Assembly: GCA_965248755.1 (NCBI GenBank)
Contig: OZ252149.1
Coordinates: forward strand, 2,752,001 to 2,816,000
DNA from: Candidatus Latescibacterota bacterium
GTDB taxonomy: Bacteria > Latescibacterota > CBDEFO01
DNA length: 64,000 nt
Direction of reading: 5' to 3'
This document shows positions 40,070 to 62,282 of the stretch, in pieces. Each line of letters opens with the position of its first letter. Position 1 is the stretch's first letter. The position numbers and the translations under genes were made by a program. Below the pieces are notes generated by a model. It saw only the letters and a program-made list of their open reading frames with translations, was not told the DNA's origin and made no database searches.

Positions 40070-41191
40070 CTACGTTGACGCTCTTACACAATCAGCCCAT
40101 GTTCTCATATATTTAATCCCCGCAATGATGTCATTTTGACTCACTTTATCCGTCACAATCACTTTTCCAATCCTTTCGGGGAGCACAAATCTTATCACAC
40201 CTTCTTTTACCTTTTTATCGGATTTCATCCTATCCAAAATATCGCTCGTAGATATATTCTCAATTCCCTTCGGGACCTCTACTCTTGACAATAGGCTGTT
40301 TTGACGCTCAAGGTCATCTTTCTTGAACAGACCCAATCTTTCTGCTATACTTCCCGCTGCGACCATGCCCAAAATCACTGCCTCGCCGTGCCTGTACACG
40401 CTGTAATTTCCCGCAGCCTCGATAGCGTGCCCGACCGTATGCCCGTAGTTCAAAGTTGCCCTCAAATCTCCCTCTTCTTTTTCATCTCCACTCACAATAT
40501 GCGCTTTTATGCGGCAGTTCCTGGCAATTAGGTCGTCCATCTGATCTGCTGAGACCTTCAGTTCCAGTATATCCTCTAAATTATCCTCCAAAAATGAAAA
40601 GAGTTCCTCGTCGGCGATCAAGCCGTGCTTTATGACCTCCGCTATGCCTGATCTTATCTCCTCTTGGGGGAGCGACCTTAAAAGATCGGTGTCCACAAGC
40701 ACAAACCTCGGCTGGTGAAACGCTCCGATCAGATTCTTTCCTAACTTATGGTCTACAGCAACCTTGCCCCCTATGCTGGCATCCACCTGGGCCACGATAG
40801 AGGTCGGGACCTGAACCAAGTCTATGCCCCTCAGGAACGTAGCTGCCACAAATCCCGCTGTATCTCCTATGACGCCTCCTCCTAACGCCACTATCGCCGA
40901 ACTTCTGTCGAGCCTGCTTTCTATCAGCTTTTCGTAGATCACATCCGCCGTCTCCAGATTTTTGTGCTCCTCGCCGTCCGGTATCACCACATCCACAACC
41001 TCTAAGTCCACCTTCTTGAGGCTGTGAGATGCGATATCCAAGTACGAATCGGCGACAGACATGCTGGATATTACCGCTGCCTTTCTGCCAAGTTCGTGCC
41101 TTTTATAGTACTCGCCCAACTGTGCCAGTACCCCATGTCCCACGTATATAGGATAGCTCCTGTCACCCAAATTTACAACTATCTTTTCCAC
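40070..41191 (-). CDS. aroB: 3-dehydroquinate synthase
   Basis: DGEEHK, GGGVIGD, DASIGGK, KNLIGAFHQP, LNYGHTVGHA, HGEAV, DKK. Confidence 0.96.
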   Translation of the reverse strand: MEKIVVNLGDRSYPIYVGHGVLAQLGEYYKRHELGRKAAVISSMSVADSYLDIASHSLKKVDLEVVDVVIPDGEEHKNLETADVIYEKLIESRLDRSSAIVALGGGVIGDTAGFVAATFLRGIDLVQVPTSIVAQVDASIGGKVAVDHKLGKNLIGAFHQPRFVLVDTDLLRSLPQEEIRSGIAEVIKHGLIADEELFSFLEDNLEDILELKVSADQMDDLIARNCRIKAHIVSGDEKEEGDLRATLNYGHTVGHAIEAAGNYSVYRHGEAVILGMVAAGSIAERLGLFKKDDLERQNSLLSRVEVPKGIENISTSDILDRMKSDKKVKEGVIRFVLPERIGKVIVTDKVSQNDIIAGIKYMRTWADCVRAST

Positions 41192-41225
41192 CCTGTCTCT
41201 TAGTTCCTTTCTACAACCTATGTTC

Positions 41226-42188
41226 TCACTTATCTCTCAACAGCGCGCGCTCCACAAAGTGAGAGACAAGCGCCTCAAAGGAGATACCGACGGCTCGAGC
41301 TGCATCTGGATAAAGGCTGGTCGGCGTCATTCCCGGCAACGTGTTGATCTCGATGACTACGGGCTCTCCTTCTTCTGGAACGATGAAATCCACCCTCGAT
41401 AGATCCCTGCAGCAGAGCGCTTCATGTGCCAGTGTGGCGATTTCCTGAGTGAGGCGATACTGCACCTCTGGAAGCGGAGCAGGGATGATGTGTTCGCTCA
41501 GGCCCGGTGCGTAGCGATGTTCATAGTCATACCACGAACCTGGAGGTGTTAGAATCTCAATTACCGGCAACGCTTCTATCCCATCTCGTTCGAGAATTCC
41601 CACAGTTATCTCACGACCCTCGATGCGTTTCTCAACAAGGACCCTCTCGTCGTAGGAAAAAGCAGCATCTATCGCCCCTTCAAGATCTGTCAAGTCCTCT
41701 CCAAATAGAATTCCGAGAGCAGAACCCTGACTGGAGGGTTTGACCACCACATCAGATCCCAGCACATCAAGAACGCGCTCTGCTGCACACGAAGCACCCT
41801 CGCTCCGGTGGATGACAATATCCTTTGCCACGGGCAGTCCATTGGCTCGAAAGATCTGTTTGGAAACTATCTTGTCCATTCCGCAGGCGCTGGCCAGTAC
41901 ACCGCTGCCGACGTACGGGATGCCTAAAATTTCAAGAAGTCCTTGAAATGTGCCATCCTCACCCGGGGGGCCATGGAAAGCAGGAAACACGATATCTACT
42001 TGTGTATCTCTAAGGGCTTCTACAATTTTGTCATCGTGCTCAAGGATAGTCACATTTTTATAAGTGGCACGAAGGGCGTCGGCGATGCATCTCCCTGAGA
42101 CTCGGGAAACCTCCGCTTCAGGCGAAGGTCCGCCGCATACGACAGCGATAGATGGCTTCTCCTTTTGAGACATAGCATAACCTTTCAT
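41226..42188 (-). CDS. ddl: D-alanine--D-alanine ligase
   Basis: GGPSPEAEVS, HGPPGEDG, MDK, KPSSQGS, YDYEHRY, RVDF, EINTLPG; alternative start 42173. Confidence 0.92.
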   Translation of the reverse strand: MKGYAMSQKEKPSIAVVCGGPSPEAEVSRVSGRCIADALRATYKNVTILEHDDKIVEALRDTQVDIVFPAFHGPPGEDGTFQGLLEILGIPYVGSGVLASACGMDKIVSKQIFRANGLPVAKDIVIHRSEGASCAAERVLDVLGSDVVVKPSSQGSALGILFGEDLTDLEGAIDAAFSYDERVLVEKRIEGREITVGILERDGIEALPVIEILTPPGSWYDYEHRYAPGLSEHIIPAPLPEVQYRLTQEIATLAHEALCCRDLSRVDFIVPEEGEPVVIEINTLPGMTPTSLYPDAARAVGISFEALVSHFVERALLRDK

Positions 42189-42227
42189 TTATGGACGAAA
42201 GGAAAGGTTCTGTTGGTTTTTAATTTC

Positions 42228-42317
42228 GGCTAACGTTCCCGTGTTTGTGAAGTGGTCGAAGGCGGGTTGCCGAAGGCCAAGGCGCATATGCACCAATGCG
42301 TGAGCCAGCTGTTAAGC
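42228..42317 (-). mobile_element. attC site closing the HEPN-motif cassette
   Basis: Minus strand GCTTAAC (RYYYAAC)...GTTAGCC, 90 bp, GC-rich imperfect palindrome. Confidence 0.75.
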
Positions 42318-42437
42318 GTTGTGTTGCTTTTTGTAATCAGAAAAGCAAAAGGAAGTGGACATAACCTTCTCTGTTTTTTAGCCGATGTGCTAAGTCTTAT
42401 CAGGGTTGTCAGGCTCTTTGTTAAGGGAGACTGTATG

Positions 42438-43169
42438 TCATACGAATTGGACGACATCATCCAAGAAAGGGATCACCTGGTGAATGTGCATGAATCCACC
42501 AATCACTTTCTGCCCGTTCATATTGGCATCAGATGACATGACATAATTGCTCCAACGTGGCGGATTCTGTGGATCGATCTGGGGCTGACCTTTTCTTGGA
42601 CTCGACGGTATTGGAGTAATATTGAATTTGTTCGAATGAAAGCATCCATTTCTCAGGTGTCTGAAGAACTGAAGCATTGGATCCCAGTTGCGAGAATCCC
42701 TACCATGCTTCGAAATGAAAAGACTCTTATTTTGTTCAAATGCACCGCCTACGAGATAAGCTGTTAGTGTCTTGAAACGATCAGTTGGATCAGAGCTAGT
42801 CCAGGTGGTTCGTCCCGGAGCAGTGCCGTCTGCGCTCACTGCATCATCAGAGACCAGTTCATAATGAATACTCGTTAGTACAGACGTTTCTTGACCAGTT
42901 ATGAACAGGTGAATCTTGTTTGCTTCATGCAATTCAAGAACCTCCGTCGAGCTAGCAGAGCTTAGCCCAATTATGGGCGTCATGCTATGGTCGTTGACGC
43001 AGCCTTTAATGTTTGTGCTGCTTGACTCCACCATTTTATTGACGACATTTACGAGGTCGCGAATGGTACGGTTGGCGGCTGCAAGCATTAGCGAACCCAT
43101 ATTCGCAACGACCATCTGAGCAAATTGGTTAATCTCATCAAAGTATGGATGATCATCGTTAACAGTCAT
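42438..43169 (-). CDS. Hypothetical cassette protein with an RxxxxH (HEPN-like) motif
   Basis: 243-aa ORF lying between GTTAGGT (43259-43265) and an attC; FFRHLRNGCFH. Confidence 0.65.
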   Translation of the reverse strand: MTVNDDHPYFDEINQFAQMVVANMGSLMLAAANRTIRDLVNVVNKMVESSSTNIKGCVNDHSMTPIIGLSSASSTEVLELHEANKIHLFITGQETSVLTSIHYELVSDDAVSADGTAPGRTTWTSSDPTDRFKTLTAYLVGGAFEQNKSLFISKHGRDSRNWDPMLQFFRHLRNGCFHSNKFNITPIPSSPRKGQPQIDPQNPPRWSNYVMSSDANMNGQKVIGGFMHIHQVIPFLDDVVQFV

Positions 43170-43258
43170 AATTTGGCCCTTCGTAGTACTTAGGGCACAG
43201 AGGTATTCTGAGGATTTGCTCCTTTATACTGTTTCCATCGCACAAAAAGCAACATTGC

Positions 43259-43325
43259 ACCTAACGTATTATATCCAAACTATTTCGTATATCTTTCCAT
43301 TTCAGCGCGCTATCCGAAGATCCCT
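43259..43325 (-). mobile_element. attI-like element, copy 2
   Basis: Core 43278-43303 is 24/26 identical to 45799-45824; ends in GTTAGGT; follows the aroK fragment. Confidence 0.55.
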
Positions 43326-43353
43326 CTGTGCCAAAGACCGACTTACTTTGTTT

Positions 43354-43578
43354 TTATAACCTACCAATAATCTCGTCCGCTATCCTGTCCGGTGGAGTTT
43401 GGTTATTCGATTCTACGATAATATCCGCCGTTCTGTAGAACTTCTCCCTTTCTTGGAGCATCCGCCTTATTTTATCTAATTTTCCACTTTCATCCAATCC
43501 AGATAGCAAGGGCCGGGTATCATCATCTTTTACCCTATCCAGGATCGTCTCAGGTGAAGAAGAGATGTAGGCGCACAC
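43354..43578 (-). pseudogene. aroK: Diverged 3' fragment of shikimate kinase
   Basis: 54/72 aa identical (manual count) to the C-terminus of aroK at 45893; Walker A region missing. Confidence 0.88.
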
Positions 43579-43602
43579 GGTCGTGTTAGCCCGTTAATCT
43601 GT

Positions 43603-44058
43603 CTATAACCTTCCCTCTTCAAGGTCATATACGTCAAACCAGACGTAAACCGGTCGGTGTTTGGGAACTTGCTCCTGGATGTATGTCTCCAAATATTCCT
43701 GGGACTTGTCGGACATCTCACCGAGCCGCATATCCCGCATCTTATTGTTCCAGCGGATAATTTTCATCCTGTCTTTGACTTTCGATTTGGCGTTGACCCA
43801 TTCGGCAACTTCTTCATCTGTGGCTCCCGTAGCCACGAATTCTTTCAATTCCTCATGATCTATCCCTGTAAAAGGCTCAAACTGGCTGCACAGTGAGCAG
43901 GGCCAGAAATTATACTCGCCATTGATCCCCAGAAGGAACGCCCGGCACTTATCCAGACAACGTGCCAAAATCACATAGCCTCCCAACATATCGCGGGGGC
44001 TCCTCGGATATCCCTTCCTCAAATCCCTGGCCAGAAGTTTCAGTTTGTCCATACTCAT
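43603..44058 (-). CDS. DUF5069-like protein (cassette)
   Basis: DL...YPRSPR..LGGYV.LAR..DKCRA...G..GEY and C-terminal DLEEGR; followed by a GGCTAAC core at 43585-43591. Confidence 0.75.
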   Translation of the reverse strand: MSMDKLKLLARDLRKGYPRSPRDMLGGYVILARCLDKCRAFLLGINGEYNFWPCSLCSQFEPFTGIDHEELKEFVATGATDEEVAEWVNAKSKVKDRMKIIRWNNKMRDMRLGEMSDKSQEYLETYIQEQVPKHRPVYVWFDVYDLEEGRL

Positions 44059-44103
44059 ATACTTATTATTCCTTCCAGAAAGCGTTGGTTGAGAAGGAAA
44101 CTA

Positions 44104-44206
44104 TTCTAACTATAAATCTCACCTGCCATAGGCGGCAGCTACTTCAAGGTACAGTACACAAACCCAAACGACAAGCCGTGCAGGATAGTTGCGCCCGTGG
44201 TTAGAT
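44104..44206 (-). mobile_element. attC-like site after the SDR cassette
   Basis: Minus strand ATCTAAC...GTTAGAA, 103 bp, partial stem (CCTGC/GCAGG, CGGC/GCCG). Confidence 0.55.
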
Positions 44207-44255
44207 ACAGCACAGAGCAGGCAGTTTCTATTGCTGATATTCGATTAAATGCAGA

Positions 44256-44855
44256 TTATTCTGCATTCCAGACCGTGAGCACCTGACCTGTCGCATCACC
44301 TTCCACACTTTCAACGTATGCTGCCCCTGCTTGCTCCAGAGTCACCTTACGGCTTCCTTTGGTTACGGGTCCGTCAACAATAAGTGCAGGGCTGACTGAA
44401 TTGATTCGTATCCCTCGGGGCATCACAGTGGACGCACTAAATACGAAGGAATTGATCGCTCCGTTAACCGTCCCCGTCACACAACTTTCAGGGGTTGGGA
44501 ATTGGGTCAGGAAGCCTGTGGTTAATGTGAACGAACCACCGTCATTGATGTAGTCCTTGCCTATGAGAACCAGATTTACTTGCCCCATCAGCTTCCGTCT
44601 GATACCGATATAAAACTTTTCTTCACTCAACTTCTCAAACGGGCCAAAGTGGCTGTCGTGTCCTCCAACTGTCGCTACAACCGCGTCAAACGAACCGACA
44701 GACTCATACATGTCCCGGATGGATTGATTATCCGTGTAGTCGAGGGTCAGATCACCTCTGGTGTGTCCGACTTTAATCACCTCATGTCGCGGTAACAGCA
44801 GTTCTACAACTTTGCTACCGATGTAACCTGAAGCTCCTACAGCAACGATTTTCAT
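44256..44855 (-). CDS. Short atypical SDR oxidoreductase (cassette)
   Basis: MKIVAVGASGYIG, KLMGQVNLV, GGSFTLTTG, RINSVSP, AYVESVEG..TGQ. Confidence 0.85.
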   Translation of the reverse strand: MKIVAVGASGYIGSKVVELLLPRHEVIKVGHTRGDLTLDYTDNQSIRDMYESVGSFDAVVATVGGHDSHFGPFEKLSEEKFYIGIRRKLMGQVNLVLIGKDYINDGGSFTLTTGFLTQFPTPESCVTGTVNGAINSFVFSASTVMPRGIRINSVSPALIVDGPVTKGSRKVTLEQAGAAYVESVEGDATGQVLTVWNAE

Positions 44856-44988
44856 AAGTTTCCTCCCGAATTGTTAAAGTAACATACCTTCGCCTAATCG
44901 CGATAAAAAAGCCAAGTCACATACCTATCGCACCACTCAAGGTCACAGGGTGTAGAGCCTCTCTCTTTGGGAGAATGGCCACGGTTGC

Positions 44989-45069
44989 TTATAACTTATT
45001 ATCGGTCACGAACCCACGTAGTGTGCTTGCGAAGGATGAACGGACAGAGCCGTGACCCAGGTGTTAGGG
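44989..45069 (-). mobile_element. attC-like site after the HAD cassette
   Basis: Minus strand CCCTAAC...GTTATAA, 81 bp, inner GGTCACG/CGTGACC stem; begins 14 nt after the HAD stop. Confidence 0.65.
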
Positions 45070-45083
45070 GCTTTTGCTCCTCT

Positions 45084-45755
45084 TTATGGCACTGTTAGAG
45101 ACTCGATCTGCGCTATTAAATCATGCAAAGGTAGATCGGCCAGAGAGCTCAATTGAAGATCAGCTTCTTCTATAGAAAGGTGCTTGGTTATAGAATTAGG
45201 CACGGACACGCAAAAGATTCCAGCGCTTTTAGCGGCTCGTATACCGTTCGGGGAATCCTCAAACACTATCGCTTCGTCAGCAGCGACAGCCAACGCCCCA
45301 AGGGCAAGCGTATAGAGCGCGGGATGTGGTTTCGTTTCGGTTACATCATCCCGGGTCTTTATGTCATCAAAGTAGTGCAGAAGATCTAAACGGGCTAAAT
45401 GAGGAATAACCCAATTTCTGGGAGAACTGGAAGCTAATCCAATCTTCAGGTTCAGTCGTCTGGCATCTTGCAGATAGCCTTCCACACCGGGTAATGTATG
45501 CTGATCCTGGAGTAGCTCTTGATTGCGCAATCGGAGTTTTGCTTTAATATCTTCCCGATCAATGGACGTACCTAACTGATCTTCTAAATGTTGGTAAGGA
45601 TCGAACGATGATGATGCTGTTCCAATACAAACAGACCAAGTAGATAATGAAAGCTTACAATCGAATTCTTGATATATCTCCTGCCACGATTGGAATATTG
45701 GAAGCTCGGTATCTAAAATAAGACCATCGAAATCGAATATCAGTGCTCTGATCAT
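45084..45755 (-). CDS. HAD-superfamily phosphatase (subfamily IA, cassette)
   Basis: IFDFDGLILDTE, LASSS, KPHP, FEDSPNG. Confidence 0.9.
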   Translation of the reverse strand: MIRALIFDFDGLILDTELPIFQSWQEIYQEFDCKLSLSTWSVCIGTASSSFDPYQHLEDQLGTSIDREDIKAKLRLRNQELLQDQHTLPGVEGYLQDARRLNLKIGLASSSPRNWVIPHLARLDLLHYFDDIKTRDDVTETKPHPALYTLALGALAVAADEAIVFEDSPNGIRAAKSAGIFCVSVPNSITKHLSIEEADLQLSSLADLPLHDLIAQIESLTVP

Positions 45756-45778
45756 TTCGTTATCTCTTACTAAATGGC

Positions 45779-45845
45779 TGCTAATTCGTTTACACGTGAA
45801 CTATTTCTCATATCTTTCCATTTCGGTCTGATATTCGAAGTTCGG
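45779..45845 (-). mobile_element. attI-like element, copy 1
   Basis: Non-coding element directly after aroK that shares AACTATTTCnnATATCTTTCCATTTC with 43278-43303; terminal core is a degenerate ATTAGCA. Confidence 0.5.
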
Positions 45846-45892
45846 ATATATATCTTTGTGGCTGAAAAAGTAACATCGCTCTGTTCTCCCCC

Positions 45893-46435
45893 TCATCTTT
45901 GACCCTTCTGCTTTTTCGATAACCTATCAATGATCTGGTCAGCTTTCCTGCCAGGGGAAGTCTCGTCGTTAGATTCTACTATAATGTCCGCCATCCTGTA
46001 GAACTTCTCTCTCTGTTCCAGCATCCGTCTTATCTTGTCCAGCTTTCCCTTTTCATCCAGTCCAGATAGCAGAGGTCGGTGATCGTGATCCCTTACTCTC
46101 TCTACAATAGTCTCCGGTGAAGAAGACAGATAGACGCTTATCCCTGACTTTGAGATCGCTGCTCTATTCCTCTGGTGAACAATAGCTCCACCGCCCAGAG
46201 AGACGATAGCTCCCGAAAGGGAACACGCCTTCTTCACACAATCGTGCTCCACATCTCTGAAGTAGCCCTCGCCGTCCTCTTCAAAGATCTCGGGAATTGT
46301 CCTTTTCTCCATCTCCTCGATCATATCGTCTGTGTCCAGGAATTTTATCCCCAGTTTCTTGGAAAGAGCCAGGCCGACCTTTGTCTTACCCGCACCCATA
46401 AACCCCGTTAGAAATATATTCTGCCCTTTACACAT
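45893..46435 (-). CDS. aroK: Shikimate kinase
   Basis: [26 protein letters not shown]; likely ATG at 46435 overlapping the aroC end. Confidence 0.95.
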
Positions 46436-47603
46436 TGTAGCTCTGGACATAAGCTTCGTAGTTGTGTCGGACCTCCTGCATGCTGTCCCCACCGAACTTC
46501 TCCAGAAAGGCGTCCGCAAGTACAAAGGCGACTACTGCCTCGCCGATAACGGACGCCGCCGGGACGGCGCATACGTCGCTCCTTTCTACGTGAGCTAAGA
46601 CTTTCTCCTTGGTCTCCATGTTCACGGACTCAAGCGGCCTCATTAAGGTGGAAATCGGCTTCTTAGCCACTCTGACGATCAGCGGCTCTCCGTTTGTCAT
46701 TCCGCCCTCCAGGCCCCCTGCGTTGTTCGACTTTCTGTAGTAGCCCTTCGCAGTGGTCGTACCACCGTCGCCGTAGGCTATCTCATCGTGAACCTGTGAA
46801 CCCTTTCTGCGGGCGCAGTCGAAGCCCAAGCCTATCTCCACTCCCTTCATAGCCTGAATACTCATCAGCGCCTGAGCCAGTCTTCCATCCAGTTTCCTGT
46901 CCCAGTGAACGTGACTTCCCAGTCCTACAGGGAGTCCTGTTACAACCACCTCGAAAATTCCCCCTGCGGAATCCCCCGCATTTTTAGCTTCATCTATCTT
47001 TTCTATCATCTTCTTTTCAATCTCGGGGTCTACGCATCTGACCGGAGACTTATCTATCTTTTCGTTGGAAAGCTCTTTTAAAGCTTCAATGCTGAGTCTA
47101 TCTCCCTCCACACCTCCGATACAGGTCACGTGGCTCTTGATCTCTATGCCGAACTCCTCCAACAGCTTCCTTGCGACAGTCCCTATGGATACCCTCGTGG
47201 CCGTCTCCCTTGCGCTAGACCTTTCCAGCACATTCCTAATATCCACATGTCCGTATTTGATCGAACCTGCAAGGTCGGCGTGGCCTGGCCTCGGTATCTG
47301 CACGGGCGTTACGTTTTCTCCACTTCCCTCAACGCTCATCCTTTCTGTCCAGTTTTCCCAATCCTTATTCTCTATCAAAAGGGCGATAGGCCCTCCCAAG
47401 GTCTTCCCGAATCTCACACCCGAAAGTATCTTTGCCCTGTCGGATTCTATCTTCATCCTCCGGCCGCGTCCGTAGCCCTGTTGTCTCCTCCAGAGTTGAT
47501 GCGCAATATAATCCTCACTTATCTCCAGCCCTGAGGGCATGCCCTCCAGGATGCCTATCAGACCCTGACCGTGAGATTCTCCTGCTGTAAGGTGGCGAAG
47601 CAT
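46428..47603 (-). CDS. aroC: Chorismate synthase
   Basis: [42 protein letters not shown]. Confidence 0.97.
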
Positions 47604-51828: not shown

Positions 51829-53130
51829 TCAGTTCTCCTTCAAAGAGTCCAAAATGTCAAAAAACCCCGGAAAAGATATGTCCACCCACTCTGTTCCCTG
51901 AATTATCGTCTCACCTTCGGATACCAATCCTGCAACAGCGAACGCCATGGCCGTTCTGTGATCTTTGAAGCTATCTATCCTTGTCCCCTGAAGCCTTCTG
52001 CCTCCCTCAATTATAAAGCCGTCCTGAAGTTCCCCCACCTTTGCCTCCATTCTCCTCAAATTATCGACCAGGGCCGTTATCCGGTCTGTTTCCTTCTTCC
52101 TCAGCTCTTCGGCGTCTCTGACCAAGAATTCGCCCGTTGCCTGCGTTGCAGCCACAGCCAATATGGGGATCTCATCGATCAGCGTCGGAACAATATCTCC
52201 ACCTATTTTTGTCCTTTTCAACTCCGAACCTCTCACCACGATGTCTCCTACGAGTTCGCCTCCACTTTGGTACTCATTTTCAACGGATATGCTCGCCCCC
52301 ATTCTCCTTAAGATGTCCAATATGCCTCGCCTTGTGGGATTCAGTCCCACGTCTTTGATCACAACCTCGGAATTGGGCACAATTGCCGCTGCTACTATGA
52401 AAAACGCCGCCGCCGAAATATCACCCGGAACGATAATGTCTATCGCATCCAACTCGACGCCTCCCTCAACAGACACCTCGTATTCCTTTCTATCCTTCAG
52501 CCTTACTGTCTTAACGCTTGCTCCTGCAGATTTCAACATCCTTTCGGTGTGATCTCTAGTTTTTGTCGTCTCTATGATTGAGGTCGTGCCATCTGCGTAT
52601 AGTCCTGCCAAGAGGATGCACGACTTGACCTGCGCGCTTAAAACCGGCAGCTCGTAGCATATAGACTCAAGGTCCCCCCCCGCGATCTTCAAGGGCGGAT
52701 ACTCGTCATCCAGGCCCGAAATCTGGGCACCCATCAACCTCAAGGGCTTCATAATCCTCCCCATCGGACGCTTATTTAATGACTCATCGCCTTTCAGACA
52801 GCACTCAAAGCCCTGACCGGCTAATATCCCGGACAGAAGCCGCATCGTTGTCCCCGAGTTTTCGGCGTTCAGTGCGCCATCGGATCTCTTAAGCCCCCTA
52901 AGACCTGTGCCCTGAACGACTATCCCGTTATCGCTCCTGTCTATCTTTACACCCAGGTCTCTCAGGCAGTTGACTGTGCTCTGGCAATCCTTGCCTGAAG
53001 GGAAATTCTCTATCCTGCTTTTCCCCCTTGCGATGCCTCCCATCATCACAGCCCGATGCGAGATAGATTTATCCCCCGGAACTGTAACTTCTCCTTTTAG
53101 GACTTTAGCCGGAGTTATCGTCCTTTCCAT
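51829..53130 (-). CDS. aroA: EPSP synthase (class II)
   Basis: PGDKSISHR, NSGTTMRL, SAQVKS, RDHTE, RKKETDR, DHR. Confidence 0.96.
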   Translation of the reverse strand: MERTITPAKVLKGEVTVPGDKSISHRAVMMGGIARGKSRIENFPSGKDCQSTVNCLRDLGVKIDRSDNGIVVQGTGLRGLKRSDGALNAENSGTTMRLLSGILAGQGFECCLKGDESLNKRPMGRIMKPLRLMGAQISGLDDEYPPLKIAGGDLESICYELPVLSAQVKSCILLAGLYADGTTSIIETTKTRDHTERMLKSAGASVKTVRLKDRKEYEVSVEGGVELDAIDIIVPGDISAAAFFIVAAAIVPNSEVVIKDVGLNPTRRGILDILRRMGASISVENEYQSGGELVGDIVVRGSELKRTKIGGDIVPTLIDEIPILAVAATQATGEFLVRDAEELRKKETDRITALVDNLRRMEAKVGELQDGFIIEGGRRLQGTRIDSFKDHRTAMAFAVAGLVSEGETIIQGTEWVDISFPGFFDILDSLKEN

Positions 53131-53527
53131 AGATGTCCTTTTCTCTCAAATAGCGTTCCATTCGACTCAAAAACTCTTCAGCCTCTGCTATTCTTGTCTC
53201 TGCTGTTTCTACCGACACCTCCTGACTTACCCTATAGTCTGATATATTCCTGTCGTCGAAGGCAGTGCTCAACATTCTCCCGTACTTGGCATCTATCGAG
53301 CCTTTCTTAACTAATTCCAAGCCGAACAAAGATATAACACCCGAATGTTTTGAAGGGTTCTTTCCTATTGAAATGAGAACAGAGGTAGCGGCGTAGAAGA
53401 CGGCGTAATACACCTTGGATACGGAATCTCTAATCAGTCCATTATAGAGGAGCAACCTTGCAGCCTGCAGAGCTTCATCAGCTCTATCCAGATACGCCCG
53501 AATTGCCTCTAATTGTTCCTCTTCCAT
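53105..53527 (-). CDS. HEPN-domain protein (toxin side of an MNT-HEPN pair)
   Basis: YYAVFYAA, SKHSGV, DRNISDY; overlaps both the MNT gene and aroA. Confidence 0.85.
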   Translation of the reverse strand: MEEEQLEAIRAYLDRADEALQAARLLLYNGLIRDSVSKVYYAVFYAATSVLISIGKNPSKHSGVISLFGLELVKKGSIDAKYGRMLSTAFDDRNISDYRVSQEVSVETAETRIAEAEEFLSRMERYLREKDIYGKDDNSG

Positions 53528-53895
53528 ATCCTTTTTCCCTCTACCTGAACGTTATGTATGAAAGGATAGAAGCTCAACTTGTCCTCAGGAATATGTGAAG
53601 AGGGCATGGTTTGAACGGATATAATGAATCTGAAGTCATGCTTATCCTGGAGGTCGTACGCTATGTCTCTTAGACTCTCCAGCAACTCCCGATCCTCAGC
53701 GGGAACAGCTACCAGAATATCAATATCCGATTCGGCAGTGGAATCTCCTCTCGCCTTGGAGCCATAGAGCCATATAGAGTCGATCCTATCTTCAAATTCC
53801 CCTACAACTTTCCCCACATATGTATCTATAATTTCCCTTTCCTCATTCGACAGGCTCGTTATTGTCTCTAAACTATCTTTGCGATCTTCTATCAT
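53509..53895 (-). CDS. Minimal nucleotidyltransferase (MNT antitoxin)
   Basis: LYGSKARGD...SDIDI, C-terminal EGKRIW; likely ATG at 53895. Confidence 0.88.
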   Translation of the reverse strand: MIEDRKDSLETITSLSNEEREIIDTYVGKVVGEFEDRIDSIWLYGSKARGDSTAESDIDILVAVPAEDRELLESLRDIAYDLQDKHDFRFIISVQTMPSSHIPEDKLSFYPFIHNVQVEGKRIWKRNN

Positions 53896-53915
53896 CTTCT
53901 CCACGCCTCGTAGCC
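53824..53915. repeat. 92-bp direct repeat, copy 1
   Basis: 86/92 identical (manual count) to 54588-54679. Confidence 0.9.
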
Positions 53916-53971
53916 ATAATTGAGGGGTAGCCATAAACGGAAGGGTCCCTTATGTAGAAATGGGGACAGAA

Positions 53972-54589
53972 TCATTCCTTTTGAGCTAGAATCCATAAAT
54001 GATGTTCTAAATAAGGGTGTTCTTCTTCCACATGAAGGAGTCTAAATCCAGCTTCTTGAATTAATTTCTTATTTTCTTCAATTGAATAAGAACTCCATGC
54101 CATCTCTGAACCAATCCACTCTTCAACAGCCATAAGCATTCCGTTCGTTCCCATGGTAACAAGAATAGGCCCTTTTTCTTTGAGAATAGTGTAAATTTTT
54201 TCAAAAAGATGTTTATGCTCTTCTCTCGGAATATGAAAAATTGCGTATAATGAAACAACAGCATCAAACGATCCTGATTCAAAATCAATATTAGACAAAT
54301 CTCCTTTTATGTATTTTGCCTGAGGGACATTCTTCCTTGCAATGTTGATATGTTTTTGTGAAATGTCTATGCCTGTAATCTCGCAGCCAGATTTAACGAG
54401 ATATTTATCGTAGGGTATTCCAATACCTGAACCAAGATCAAGGACTTTTGCATTTTTAGGGATTAAGTGTAGTAATTTATCAAAAAATCTTTGTTCCATT
54501 TCATTCAGATTTTTATTTAATCTAAAGAATTTTTGGTAATCTCCCTCATCATATCCTTTTTCAACAATTTTCCGTATATCTTTTACCAT
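53972..54589 (-). CDS. Class I SAM-dependent methyltransferase (AT-rich, inserted)
   Basis: VLDLGSGIG, GIDIS, FDAVVSLYAIFH; visibly AT-richer than its neighbours. Confidence 0.88.
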   Translation of the reverse strand: MVKDIRKIVEKGYDEGDYQKFFRLNKNLNEMEQRFFDKLLHLIPKNAKVLDLGSGIGIPYDKYLVKSGCEITGIDISQKHINIARKNVPQAKYIKGDLSNIDFESGSFDAVVSLYAIFHIPREEHKHLFEKIYTILKEKGPILVTMGTNGMLMAVEEWIGSEMAWSSYSIEENKKLIQEAGFRLLHVEEEHPYLEHHLWILAQKE

Positions 54590-59353: not shown

Positions 59354-59986
59354 CTATTTACGGGTCACGTTGAATATGAACCTCTTCAGCTTCTCCCTGT
59401 CCTTTTTCCCGGGCTCCTTCTCAACTCCGCTTCCCACATCGACAGCATAGGGGTTTACTATCTCTACAGCCTCATTTACATTTTCGGGATTTAGTCCCCC
59501 CGACAGGATTATCCTGCCGAAGTTTTTGGCCTCTATGGCTATATTCCAGTCGAACGTCCTGCCCGTGCCGCCGTATAGACCCTTATCGTACGTATCCAGC
59601 AGAAATCCATCTACGTCGTAATCCCTCAAAGACGCCGCCTCGAAATCTTTATCTATTCTTATAGCCTTAATGACACCTCTTATAGCCTTAATCACACCTT
59701 TGTCAAACGAGGCGCAGAATTCCGGCGATTCATCACCATGGAGCTGAAGCAGTGTAATACCGGCCTTATCTACGATCTCCTCAATTTTCTCCTTCTCCTC
59801 GTTCACAAAGACCCCTACGGTAGTCACAAAGGGCGGCAGTCTATCGGTGATCTCCTTTACGGCAGCCGTAAGCACGTAGCGCGGGCTTTTCGGGTAGAAG
59901 ATAAATCCCAAAGCGTCCGCTCCCAGTTCGGCGGCATAAAGCGCGTCGTCTATGTTCGTAATTCCGCAGACCTTTATCCTTGTCAT
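59354..59986 (-). CDS. trpF: Phosphoribosylanthranilate isomerase
   Basis: KVCGIT, QLHGDE, GGTG, LSGGL, DVGSGVE. Confidence 0.95.
59657..59698. repeat. 21-bp in-frame tandem duplication in trpF
   Basis: GVIKAIR twice; the copies differ by one synonymous base. Confidence 0.92.
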
Positions 59987-60510
59987 TCTTCCAATTTAAA
60001 TGAGAAAAGCTGTACCACCGGGCGAAATTCCACAACGCCTATCTCTACAATTTGTCCCCGCATCGGCAGAGAAGCTCGTTGAGAGATCTCCACAGCTTTG
60101 GGAACCAGATTTGGATCCAGATCCATAGCGAGCGTACAGTGAGGGACCCAGCGCCCCGGAAGATAATTCTCCCACCAGGGTTCGCTGACGTCCCGGACGA
60201 AACGATGAAAGTAAGAGTGGATGTCCAAAAGCTTATGTGTGACCGTCGGCGCGAGGAACACTACTCCCCTTGGAAAGATACCGACATTTGACAGGGTTAC
60301 AGCAAAGGGGGATAGCTCCTTTGCAAACGATCTCAGTCTTGCCTTAAATTCGGCGATATTAAGCTCGTTACAGATAGCGAGCGTTGCATGAGGGGGATCG
60401 CCAGAATCGAGCATATAGGAACTAACCCCTGCCTCTGCGAGATCCTTCCATATATCTCGTATAGCAGTTTCACTATCCGAATCCAGATACATTACAATCG
60501 CAAGTGGCAT
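59983..60510 (-). CDS. 2H phosphoesterase (2'-5' RNA ligase family)
   Basis: Two HxT motifs (PHATL, PHCTL); likely ATG at 60510; ATGA overlap with trpF. Confidence 0.85.
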
Positions 60511-60587
60511 AACAAAAGACTTCTTTATGTTTTGACTCATATTTTGGGCAGGCGCTTCAGAGCCAGTGTGATCTTGGTGATTACCAT

Positions 60588-60625
60588 TTATAGTCTGCCA
60601 ACCTAATTATAGTCTGCTAACCTAA
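60588..60625. repeat. 19-bp tandem direct repeat
   Basis: TTATAGTCTGCCAACCTAA then TTATAGTCTGCTAACCTAA. Confidence 0.85.
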
Positions 60626-61452
60626 ACTCGTTTCCTGCACACAGCGATTAGATGTGTGCCCATATCCAGACAACCCGGCTCACGACAGGCCTCTATTTCC
60701 ATTTCCAAGAGGTGTTGCCAGATATCTCTGTCCTCTCGTAGAGTGCCCAGATGCTCTTCCCACGTGGCGGACAGGCAGTCGCTGGCTGAGAGTACCTCAA
60801 TGATAACCCCTGCCTTCTCGAGGAAGGCTCTAAACTCGTCAGCGCGATACATATGGCAGAAATGCTTTAAGACCGCGGACTTGTCTGGACCCAGATCTCC
60901 TGAGACTACGATCTTTCTGTTCACCTCGGGATCCACTTCGAGAACCCCGGGGAGAAAATGATGAACTGACCCCCATAGGCTCATCACCCCCAGGAAAAGC
61001 AATCCGCCCGGTCTGGTGACATGCAGAAGTTCCCGAATGGCTTTCTCTCGTTCATTAAACACGTAACTCAAAGGCCCTCCATAGCAGACCAGAGCGTCAA
61101 ATTCCCCTTCGTGGAAATGAGGTCGCAGGTCGCACATATCGCACTCGACCCAGTGTTCTATGGAGTCGGAGAATCCCAACGTCAGCGCGTTTTCCCGATT
61201 GAGTTGAAGCTGAATCGGCGAGATGTCTGCAACCACAATCTTCTCTGATATCCTGGCGAGCTCCTGTGTGAATCTCCCGGGGCCTGCCCCGATCTCCAAA
61301 ATACGGTGATGTGCCTGAAGATACTTCTGTAGATAGTACAGATGCACCTCGAACTTAATCTGCTGGACAGGGCTTTCGTCCCATCGCTCCCATTCTTTGT
61401 CGCCGTATTCGTTGTAATACGATCTCACCCAATCGGGATCATATCTTGTCAT
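60622..61452 (-). CDS. Class I SAM-dependent methyltransferase
   Basis: ILEIGAGPG, ADIS, GGPLSY, PGG; likely ATG at 61452. Confidence 0.87.
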   Translation of the reverse strand: MTRYDPDWVRSYYNEYGDKEWERWDESPVQQIKFEVHLYYLQKYLQAHHRILEIGAGPGRFTQELARISEKIVVADISPIQLQLNRENALTLGFSDSIEHWVECDMCDLRPHFHEGEFDALVCYGGPLSYVFNEREKAIRELLHVTRPGGLLFLGVMSLWGSVHHFLPGVLEVDPEVNRKIVVSGDLGPDKSAVLKHFCHMYRADEFRAFLEKAGVIIEVLSASDCLSATWEEHLGTLREDRDIWQHLLEMEIEACREPGCLDMGTHLIAVCRKRV

Positions 61453-61463
61453 GCGCAATTTGC

Positions 61464-62282
61464 TTAGTTGCCCGCCGATGAGCCTGATGGCTTCACAGCG
61501 CGGACATATAGATACTCTGCCGCGTGATCGCGCCACCTTTTCAGCCAGGGGTGCTCTTTACACACCTCCTCGGATGGGCGCGGTTCTTCGACTTCCTTCA
61601 AGGCGAATCCCGCCCCGATCAAAGCGTTGAGATATTCGGAGAGCGTCTTGGGAAACCTCGGCACAATAAACGGTGTAACATCCTCATTAACGGGAGCCTT
61701 TGAGAATCTCCAATGCAACACTACTGGCTTGTCGTTGAAATAATCGGAGACTGTAAATTTGATGCAATTGCCCTGCTCGTCACGTATCCACCCGTGACCT
61801 TTGGTAGAGAAACATGGATGAGTTATGCTGAAGATCAACTCGCCACCCAGTCGGAGCACTCTGCAGATCTCTTTGACAGCAGCTTCAAAGTCAGGGCTAT
61901 CCATCAGCGCCATGAATGAAACTACGACGTCGAAGGATGCATCGTCGAAGGTAGAAAGATCGCAGAAGAACGCCACCTCGTAGCGAATCCCAAGAGGTTC
62001 CCTTTTCTCTTCCTGAAGAGCAAATTCGATCATCTTCGGGGAAATATCCACGGCGACCATTCGCGCACCGCTTCTGGCCAAAAGCCGCGTGTTGTAACCC
62101 TCCCCACAGCCGGCGTCCAGGACCCTCATTCCATTAAGGTCGCCGATGAACCTAAAGAAGGCGGGATTGTTAAAGTGCTCGCGGTAGGCGTCCCAGCCTC
62201 TGCGGACATGGTCTGCCCATAAGTCCGCATTACGATCCCCATATCGGGCGACTTCCTCTTCGGATAATTCCGAACGCTTCAT
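61464..62282 (-). CDS. Class I SAM-dependent methyltransferase
   Basis: VLDAGCGEG, VDIS, FDVVVS, SITHPCF. Confidence 0.88.
   Translation of the reverse strand: MKRSELSEEEVARYGDRNADLWADHVRRGWDAYREHFNNPAFFRFIGDLNGMRVLDAGCGEGYNTRLLARSGARMVAVDISPKMIEFALQEEKREPLGIRYEVAFFCDLSTFDDASFDVVVSFMALMDSPDFEAAVKEICRVLRLGGELIFSITHPCFSTKGHGWIRDEQGNCIKFTVSDYFNDKPVVLHWRFSKAPVNEDVTPFIVPRFPKTLSEYLNALIGAGFALKEVEEPRPSEEVCKEHPWLKRWRDHAAEYLYVRAVKPSGSSAGN

Follow-up and report, generated by a model that had tools for sequence, protein, structure and literature searches.

A cassette row in the aro operon of a Latescibacterota bacterium, with an attI-like site probably left by a lost integron-like recombinase

Introduction

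Clusters of attC sites lacking an integrase (CALINs) have been reported to lie, in 95% of cases, far from any intI pseudogene, and recombinases found near attC sites that lack the IntI-specific domain were judged in the same study not to be IntI (Cury 2016, PMC4889954). Archaeal integrons have the IntI domain (PMC9668308). An integron-like subgroup of tyrosine recombinases has also been defined (Smyshlyaev 2021, PMC8138268; NCBIfam NF040815, Pfam PF13495 plus PF00589); its main text gives no sites or cassette arrays for the members without the IntI insertion and does not contain the word attC. In the mostly open-access literature covered here, no description was found of insertion-less recombinases with cassette sites of their own, or of an essential ddl in such a row. 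Here we describe a row of cassette-like genes between aroK and aroB in a 64,000-nt stretch of DNA (the window) from a Candidatus Latescibacterota bacterium, together with an attI-like element, X, that is found twice in this row.

The window corresponds to C1:2752001-2816000 in a genome (G000) that is closed, 4.54 Mb long and 98% complete (assembly GCA_965248755.1, contig OZ252149.1, here C1). Positions without a contig name are counted within it, and all window features described lie on the minus strand. The comparison base consists of this genome, a same-genus sister genome (G001) and contigs from a few related runs; the sister is the Latescibacterota metagenome-assembled genome with the closest aroK relative (92% identity, locus L030). 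On balance, the sequences suggest that the row probably belongs to an integron-like system that was run by an IntI relative without the insertion. X would be its orphaned dock, the recombinase would be gone except for a tail that likely ends aroK, and new units made of an aroK 3' half (aroK'), X and a cassette would likely have arrived from relatives, anchored in aroK and in ddl-aroB.

Results

Element X and its variable cassettes

The row reads aroC, aroK, X, HAD, SDR (short-chain dehydrogenase), DUF5069, aroK 3' copy, X, GTTAGGT, a 243-aa open reading frame (ORF), ddl and aroB, in agreement with the gene order given in a preliminary description of this DNA. X sits fixed between aroK and aroB, inside a biosynthetic operon, as had also been proposed. 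The first copy (X1, 45781..45885) follows aroK (45893..46435; shikimate kinase, PF01202 153 bits; 92% identical in the sister) and the second (X2, 43262..43352, identified by X alignment and profile) follows the aroK 3' copy. The element is present twice at the locus, as first noticed, but it is a dispersed family of ~14 copies in the genome and not a local duplicate. An iterated profile detected 14 copies at E <1e-8, and a second profile detected 12 at E <=7e-13, two more at <=1.1e-4 and three weaker ones, with none in the reversed genome; these scores, like the E value of 3.5e-21 for X1, are inflated because both profiles were seeded with these copies. The consensus terminates in AAACAAG|TT and contains, besides an inverted repeat, recurring words similar to TTCGGATAT. 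Read by eye, the GTT core is kept in 6 of 15 copies inspected. Of the two window copies, X2 retains the core (G|TT at 43265|43264), whereas X1 has lost it and is now the leader of the HAD gene. Several core-less copies directly precede ordinary metabolic genes, and X may act there as a domesticated leader or promoter. Promoter-like sites numbered 6 against 7.9 expected, with none on the coding strand within X, and an Rfam scan of 41000-47000 gave nothing meaningful. X DNA was absent among the 166 other genomes of the phylum (168 in total), with chance-level matches of 20-40 nt in three, and viral contigs, plasmids and a metagenome pattern scan gave no match. At C1:1623036, C1:3598879 and C1:2286308, the core-less copy leads directly into the ribosome-binding site and the start codon belonging to a dihydrodipicolinate synthase-like or other metabolic gene.

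Cassette units begin at G|TT behind X, and content differs at two X loci between the sister genomes, which bears out the earlier view of X as an attI-like site. The sister shares aroK-X-HAD-SDR-DUF5069-half site-aroK' with the window. Next in the sister come a DUF4268/PDC-S11-like gene, followed by its site, and a fusion of a ddl 5' piece with a further aroK half; behind a third X stand an aadS-like cassette split by an insertion sequence (IS), the site of that cassette, ddl and aroB. The aroK-aroB interval, for which a comparison across relatives had been suggested, therefore varies in content behind X, with a HEPN-motif gene here and DUF4268 and aadS-like genes there; the aadS-like cassette stands where the HEPN-motif cassette stands in the window. 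The aadS unit starts with GTTAGCGGA and ends with TCCGCTAAC, which are complementary over 9 nt, as expected of a circular cassette. The two ends of the HEPN-motif unit (42234..43264) are complementary to each other at 19 of 24 positions. Another orthologous X (C1:2575906) differs by an additional methyltransferase-like unit of 1.07 kb in the sister, placed precisely at G|TT and again with complementary R boxes of 9 nt at its ends. Of the other sister X loci compared, the DNA beside X is unchanged at three, and another four belong to segments that are absent from G000 or break synteny. The locus agrees with a canonical integron in its G|TT insertion at an attI-like site, complementary R''/R' ends and variable content.

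The 243-aa ORF of the HEPN-motif cassette (42438-43169) has an RxxxxH motif that is invariant in all 26 aligned homologues. It matched nothing in Pfam, NCBIfam or PADLOC, and an Atlas lead to a HEPN family scored 0.88, under the 0.9 mark. In contigs of related runs, one run repeats the sister layout and two have the aadS-like gene without the IS. Another contig in one run joins the DUF5069 site to the ddl start, with little cover over the DUF4268 gene; this is a hint only, with 29-30 letters on the short side and unknown letters between. Two contig joints that run backward are explained by the aroK and X repeats.

Several further features were seen in the sister. Its ddl 5' piece and second aroK half are fused in frame in a 93-codon ORF (L030:12131-12412), and the IS that splits the aadS-like cassette (L030:12832-14360) encodes a 466-aa transposase, with many IS copies in both genomes. 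Segments found only in the sister (L127:15748-17831, L120:6992-10941 and L132:5262-7248) hold X and/or an attC-like site with cassette-type genes which, named by sequence appearance, are phosphotransferase-like or ImmA/IrrE-like and PIN-like pairs.

Traces of a probable lost recombinase without the IntI insertion

At C1:738.9 kb, at the orthologous site in the sister and at a second sister locus, X lies directly behind a C-terminal tyrosine-recombinase remnant whose best family is NF040815 (NF040815/TIGR02249-like). The remnant protein was matched in 43 of 168 phylum genomes, and the IntI insertion is absent from all 20 aligned relatives. Against TIGR02249, two full-length relatives reach 210-214 bits, below the cut-off of 265, in a match that is split into two stretches. 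Intact relatives were found only in other Latescibacterota, with differing site sequences; by eye, a GTT site with upstream repeats lies up to ~200 nt past the recombinase stop in about half of 30 loci. With the remnant as query, no longer homologues were found at E 1e-10, and a representative-protein search gave no close full-length relative, the closest relatives of the remnant being at most 59% identical. The longest remnants before X are at C1:738648-739056 (L010) and at L059 of the sister, where the unit behind X carries no gene and has GAT/ATC boxes in place of GTT/AAC.

The window itself contains no tyrosine-recombinase match, as previously stated for the whole 64 kb. The last 12 codons and stop of aroK (45893..45930) align with the remnant tail at a local score of 97, compared with a maximum of 74 in 1000 shuffles. 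This tail is the sole recombinase trace at the aroK locus, and the longer remnants stand before X elsewhere in both genomes. These observations suggest that X is the 3' flank (attI-like site) of a lost, co-oriented IntI relative without the IntI insertion, rather than an element born integrase-less, and that the aroK end was likely formed from the recombinase tail.

The preliminary description had X loaded in trans by a host IntI. No IntI above the TIGR02249 cut-off and no NF040815 member above its cut-off was detected in either genome. Seven long recombinase frames were classified by sequence motifs and neighbours (a recombinase tree, which drew long-branch warnings, was not used for placement); they resemble XerC (beside hslV), XerD and phage, integrative and conjugative element or archaeal-type integrases, and the motifs of the insertion-less family are absent from them. 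Host-IntI loading is thus unsupported, since neither genome has an intact IntI or cognate recombinase and the sites are not canonical attC. A broader version is that X2 is still loaded in place by some recombinase acting in trans, either an insertion-less type briefly present on mobile DNA or a host enzyme. The precise cassette indel at the second orthologous X, the surviving GTT cores, the complementary ends of the HEPN cassette and the spread of the remnant protein through the phylum all fit such loading. Against it, the C1:738.9 kb remnant is broken in both genomes, and recombinase loss therefore likely predates their split; recent mobility is made less likely by the lack of any folding beyond shuffles in the sites that follow X2 and its sister counterpart; and the aroK' pads differ together with the cassettes. 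We consider continued loading in trans unlikely.

Decayed cassette sites of a non-canonical class

All genes of the row had been described as followed by xxxTAAC...GTTA hairpins. Three such stretches do exist, at 44989..45069 behind the HAD-family hydrolase gene (45084..45755; PF13419; dN/dS, the ratio of non-synonymous to synonymous divergence, 0.17), at 44104..44206 behind the SDR gene (44256..44855; PF13561; dN/dS 0.21) and at 42228..42317. They are not stable hairpins: bottom-strand folding z is -0.05, +0.55 and -0.48, respectively, versus -6.36 for an intact relative. No attC-like site is found behind ddl. A truncated core (GGCTAAC) had been placed behind the DUF5069 gene (43603..44058; PF16798 148 bits); the truncation is real, but the remainder is a 20-nt arm (43572..43591) and not the 7-nt core alone. 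This 5' arm is a weak sequence-profile match (E 9.5) that starts as intact sites do. In the candidate attC-like stretch behind the SDR gene, core motifs alone are left (canonical score 0.5, non-canonical -2). The HAD, SDR and DUF5069 genes are fixed cassette genes, all three of which the sister has too. The window sites are decayed, with no canonical attC geometry and no folding beyond shuffles.

From 19 loci carrying insertion-less recombinases, hairpins were chosen by a folding filter, and a covariance model (R1) was built from 26 of those hairpins, all of them from other genomes. R1 describes an R box with a single wobble pair, a 4-nt bulge on one side and ~11 bp of stem. Pairing is found in 93% of cells, as compared with 33-41% in slid controls, and two-sided changes occur in 15 of 22 pairs; the same sequences served both to derive the structure and to count its pairing. 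Across the 19 loci R1 gave 47 matches, of which 21 were outside the training set and 20 of those co-oriented with the recombinase; co-oriented sites occur at 13 of the 19 loci. Although canonical geometry failed, two of the three window stretches match this model of the insertion-less class: 42228-42317 (34.8 bits, E 9e-7), whose R' (GTTAGCC) opens the ddl unit, and 44989-45069 (28.6 bits, E 4e-5) are the two best R1 matches of the window, and two further sister-genome sites are matched. They form a pair of attC-like sites of a non-canonical class, 2.7 kb apart with no integrase nearby. In a genome-wide search in which 150 of 841 candidates were scored, at least 9 R1 sites were found, and a site lies within 1.5 kb downstream of 4 of 15 X copies, compared with 0.02 expected.

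These results bear on whether the row could be a plain CALIN, which is defined by at least two attC sites spaced no more than 4 kb apart without a nearby intI, or whether IntI put canonical cassettes at chromosomal attG sites. CALINs, single attC sites lacking an integrase (SALINs) and attG insertion are all documented (PMC4889954, 10.1101/2022.09.11.507474), IntI above the cut-off is present in 17 of 168 phylum genomes, and this genome holds IntI fragments with a different attI-like site, so that two site families coexist in it. On the canonical L-box rule, however, the three window sites score 0-1 of 7, as against 7 for canonical sites close to IntI. The two classes are also told apart by R1, which has no match in 15 canonical-IntI loci where canonical sites scoring 7/7 are present, and insertion is at a conserved 100-nt element instead of a bare GWT. 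A genome-wide scan with a canonical attC rule (33 matches) has no power here because one shuffle yields more matches (49). An ordinary CALIN or attG origin is thus very improbable. The true IntI C-terminal fragments, each followed by the second attI-like element, are at C1:212904-213300 (L001) and C1:15465-15800 (L024).

Diverged aroK halves and their joints

The aroK 3' copy (43354..43578) is 224 nt long and 76% identical to the resident aroK. The two differ by 30 synonymous and 18 non-synonymous changes in 69 codons, with a synonymous divergence (dS) of 1.48 and a dN/dS of 0.08, whereas orthologous genes of the two genomes have a dS of 0.06-0.19. The copies in the sister differ again (dS 0.65 and 2.46), and two copies with the same joint are separated by 15 synonymous and 6 non-synonymous differences over 38 codons. 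Together with the resident half, the copy in the window and the two in the sister thus make four different alleles with synonymous excess. The half site meets aroK at a microhomology of 4 nt (TGCG), and the second microhomology joint falls at Ser-Pro-Glu codons common to ddl and aroK.

Plain tandem duplication in place of aroK-3'-X-cassette-ddl-5', followed by decay and with nothing from outside, could produce microhomology joints, and the ddl-5'/aroK-3' fusion of the sister fits slippage or unequal crossover. X2 and the third X of the sister also have a common 11-nt deletion. Yet a dead copy should drift neutrally, which is at odds with the low dN/dS at high dS, and the divergence of the same-joint copies adds to this; the pattern requires each copy to have been in long use as a working aroK end. 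In-place duplication therefore seems improbable to us. The aroK halves appear instead to be diverged, once-functional alleles from relatives. Because these alleles are joined at microhomologies, we infer that whole aroK'-X-cassette-ddl segments came from relatives by one homologous anchor and one illegitimate joint, with later swaps on the aroK' pad.

The only ddl gene at the end of the row

The D-Ala-D-Ala ligase gene (ddl) serves the cell wall, and most bacteria cannot do without it. By tblastn and PF07478, each of the two genomes has one ddl, the window-type gene (41226..42188); other PF07478 matches are weak and lie in 426-524-aa frames. The gene begins at the R' of the last site (42228-42317) and is followed after 34 nt by aroB (40070..41191; PF01761, PF24621), the downstream anchor. 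At six other Latescibacterota loci the neighbours of ddl are ispD-ispF (five) or a dedA-like gene (one), with cysS also present at two. In the window's genome the usual neighbours stand together at C1:2.087-2.093 Mb with no ddl. Compared with the listed ddl genes of the phylum from outside the genus, the window ddl shows 36-48% identity; to stand-alone ddl genes on metagenome contigs it is 75-79% identical. It looks foreign, and it was possibly captured as a cassette. In the usual slot (C1:2089586-2091750, L026, between ispF and the dedA-like gene) are a frameshifted Gfo/Idh/MocA oxidoreductase gene and a DUF417-like gene.

Surroundings of the row

Adjacent aroK and aroB were found in one of three other Latescibacterota loci compared, and in four phylum genomes aroK lies within frames of 554-573 aa, which are probably aroK-aroB fusions. 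The same long trp-aro row is interrupted by two sets of accessory genes without an adjoining X or R1 site: a MNT-HEPN pair with a 33%-GC methyltransferase gene between tyrA and aroA (53105-54589), and two methyltransferase genes with a 2'-5' RNA-ligase-like gene among trp genes (59983-62282).

Discussion

The locus works like an integron, yet it fails two tested features, IntI and canonical attC. The history that we favour would begin with the landing of a recombinase-X element behind aroK, the recombinase body being deleted at a short shared sequence and its last codons left as the aroK end. Cassettes would then have been inserted at G|TT while the recombinase was present, as the junctions suggest. 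With the recombinase gone and the hairpins decayed, the resident cassettes are now likely locked. DNA of relatives with the same aroK-X-cassette-ddl layout would enter by one homologous anchor and one microhomology joint (a one-anchor model is reportedly that of de Vries and Wackernagel in 2002) or, once an aroK' pad exists, by a double-crossover swap, and units would be stacked or replaced. The sole ddl stands at the row end, its usual slot being taken by other genes, and would pin the downstream end; read-through to ddl and aroB is predicted to express the cassettes.

A more far-reaching picture is offered tentatively. A dock of a second, insertion-less integron class may have been domesticated, with the recombinase tail as the aroK end; a captured foreign ddl may have replaced the native essential gene and pinned the row; and cassettes may turn over between related species without an integrase, through aroK halves and ddl-aroB anchors.

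Several observations weigh against the history that we favour. In the sequences searched, X itself was never seen behind an intact recombinase, so that the pairing of enzyme and site rests on remnants, and recombination activity of the class is predicted, all features of the locus having been read from sequence. The SDR stretch (44104-44206) was missed by R1, and the non-canonical geometry scores (38 of 44 sites) are inflated because the sites were chosen by the folding filter. X1 and its sister orthologue are identical at 99 of 106 columns. X2 and its counterpart differ at 16 of 84, so that they may represent separate alleles and not a single site that was loaded on two occasions. For ddl, no R1 site was present at the 56 loci of close relatives scanned (of 80 loci), and the start GTTAGC[CG]GAAA is not enriched genome-wide (5 versus 1-5 in shuffles).

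If this history holds, one fate of integron-like platforms is that dock and cargo are built into a core operon after recombinase loss. Dock and cargo could then provide a housekeeping gene with its end and carry the sole copy of a usually essential cell-wall gene. X and the covarying site model also make testable the long-held view that cassette recombination needs the IntI insertion, and orphaned docks of a second class may explain some of the CALINs that are distant from intI pseudogenes.

Among described systems, co-oriented ("inverted" or "reverse") IntI integrons and CALINs (Cury 2016, PMC4889954; Neron 2022, PMC9024848) resemble this locus in their co-oriented single-gene cassettes, RYYYAAC/GTTRRRY boxes, G|TT insertion behind a site 3' of the recombinase gene, and arrays bereft of integrase. 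Here, in contrast, the IntI-specific domain is missing from the recombinase, a 4-nt one-sided bulge and a long stem take the place of spacer and L box in the sites, and the attI-like site is fused to a housekeeping gene. Delta-attI-type cassettes of mobile integrons (PMC12901181), as reported, likewise have repeated attI-type sites in an array, each heading its own gene; IntI1 recombines them, whereas the repeat unit here includes half of aroK and no recombinase. In the account of the Treponema reverse integron (10.1101/2020.05.09.085589), ddl6 and ddl7 also occupy cassette positions of a co-oriented integron, but they are first-position resistance cassettes, while the ddl here is last, without an attC-like site, and the genome's only ddl. 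Homology-facilitated illegitimate recombination (PMC6382021) is described as RecA-dependent uptake of divergent DNA through an anchor and a microhomology joint, which is the type of event proposed here; it was shown in transformation experiments with other bacteria. The locus would add to these systems a domesticated state, in which a likely recombinase tail in aroK, stacked foreign aroK halves, ~14 orphan docks and a sole ddl at the row end are found together.

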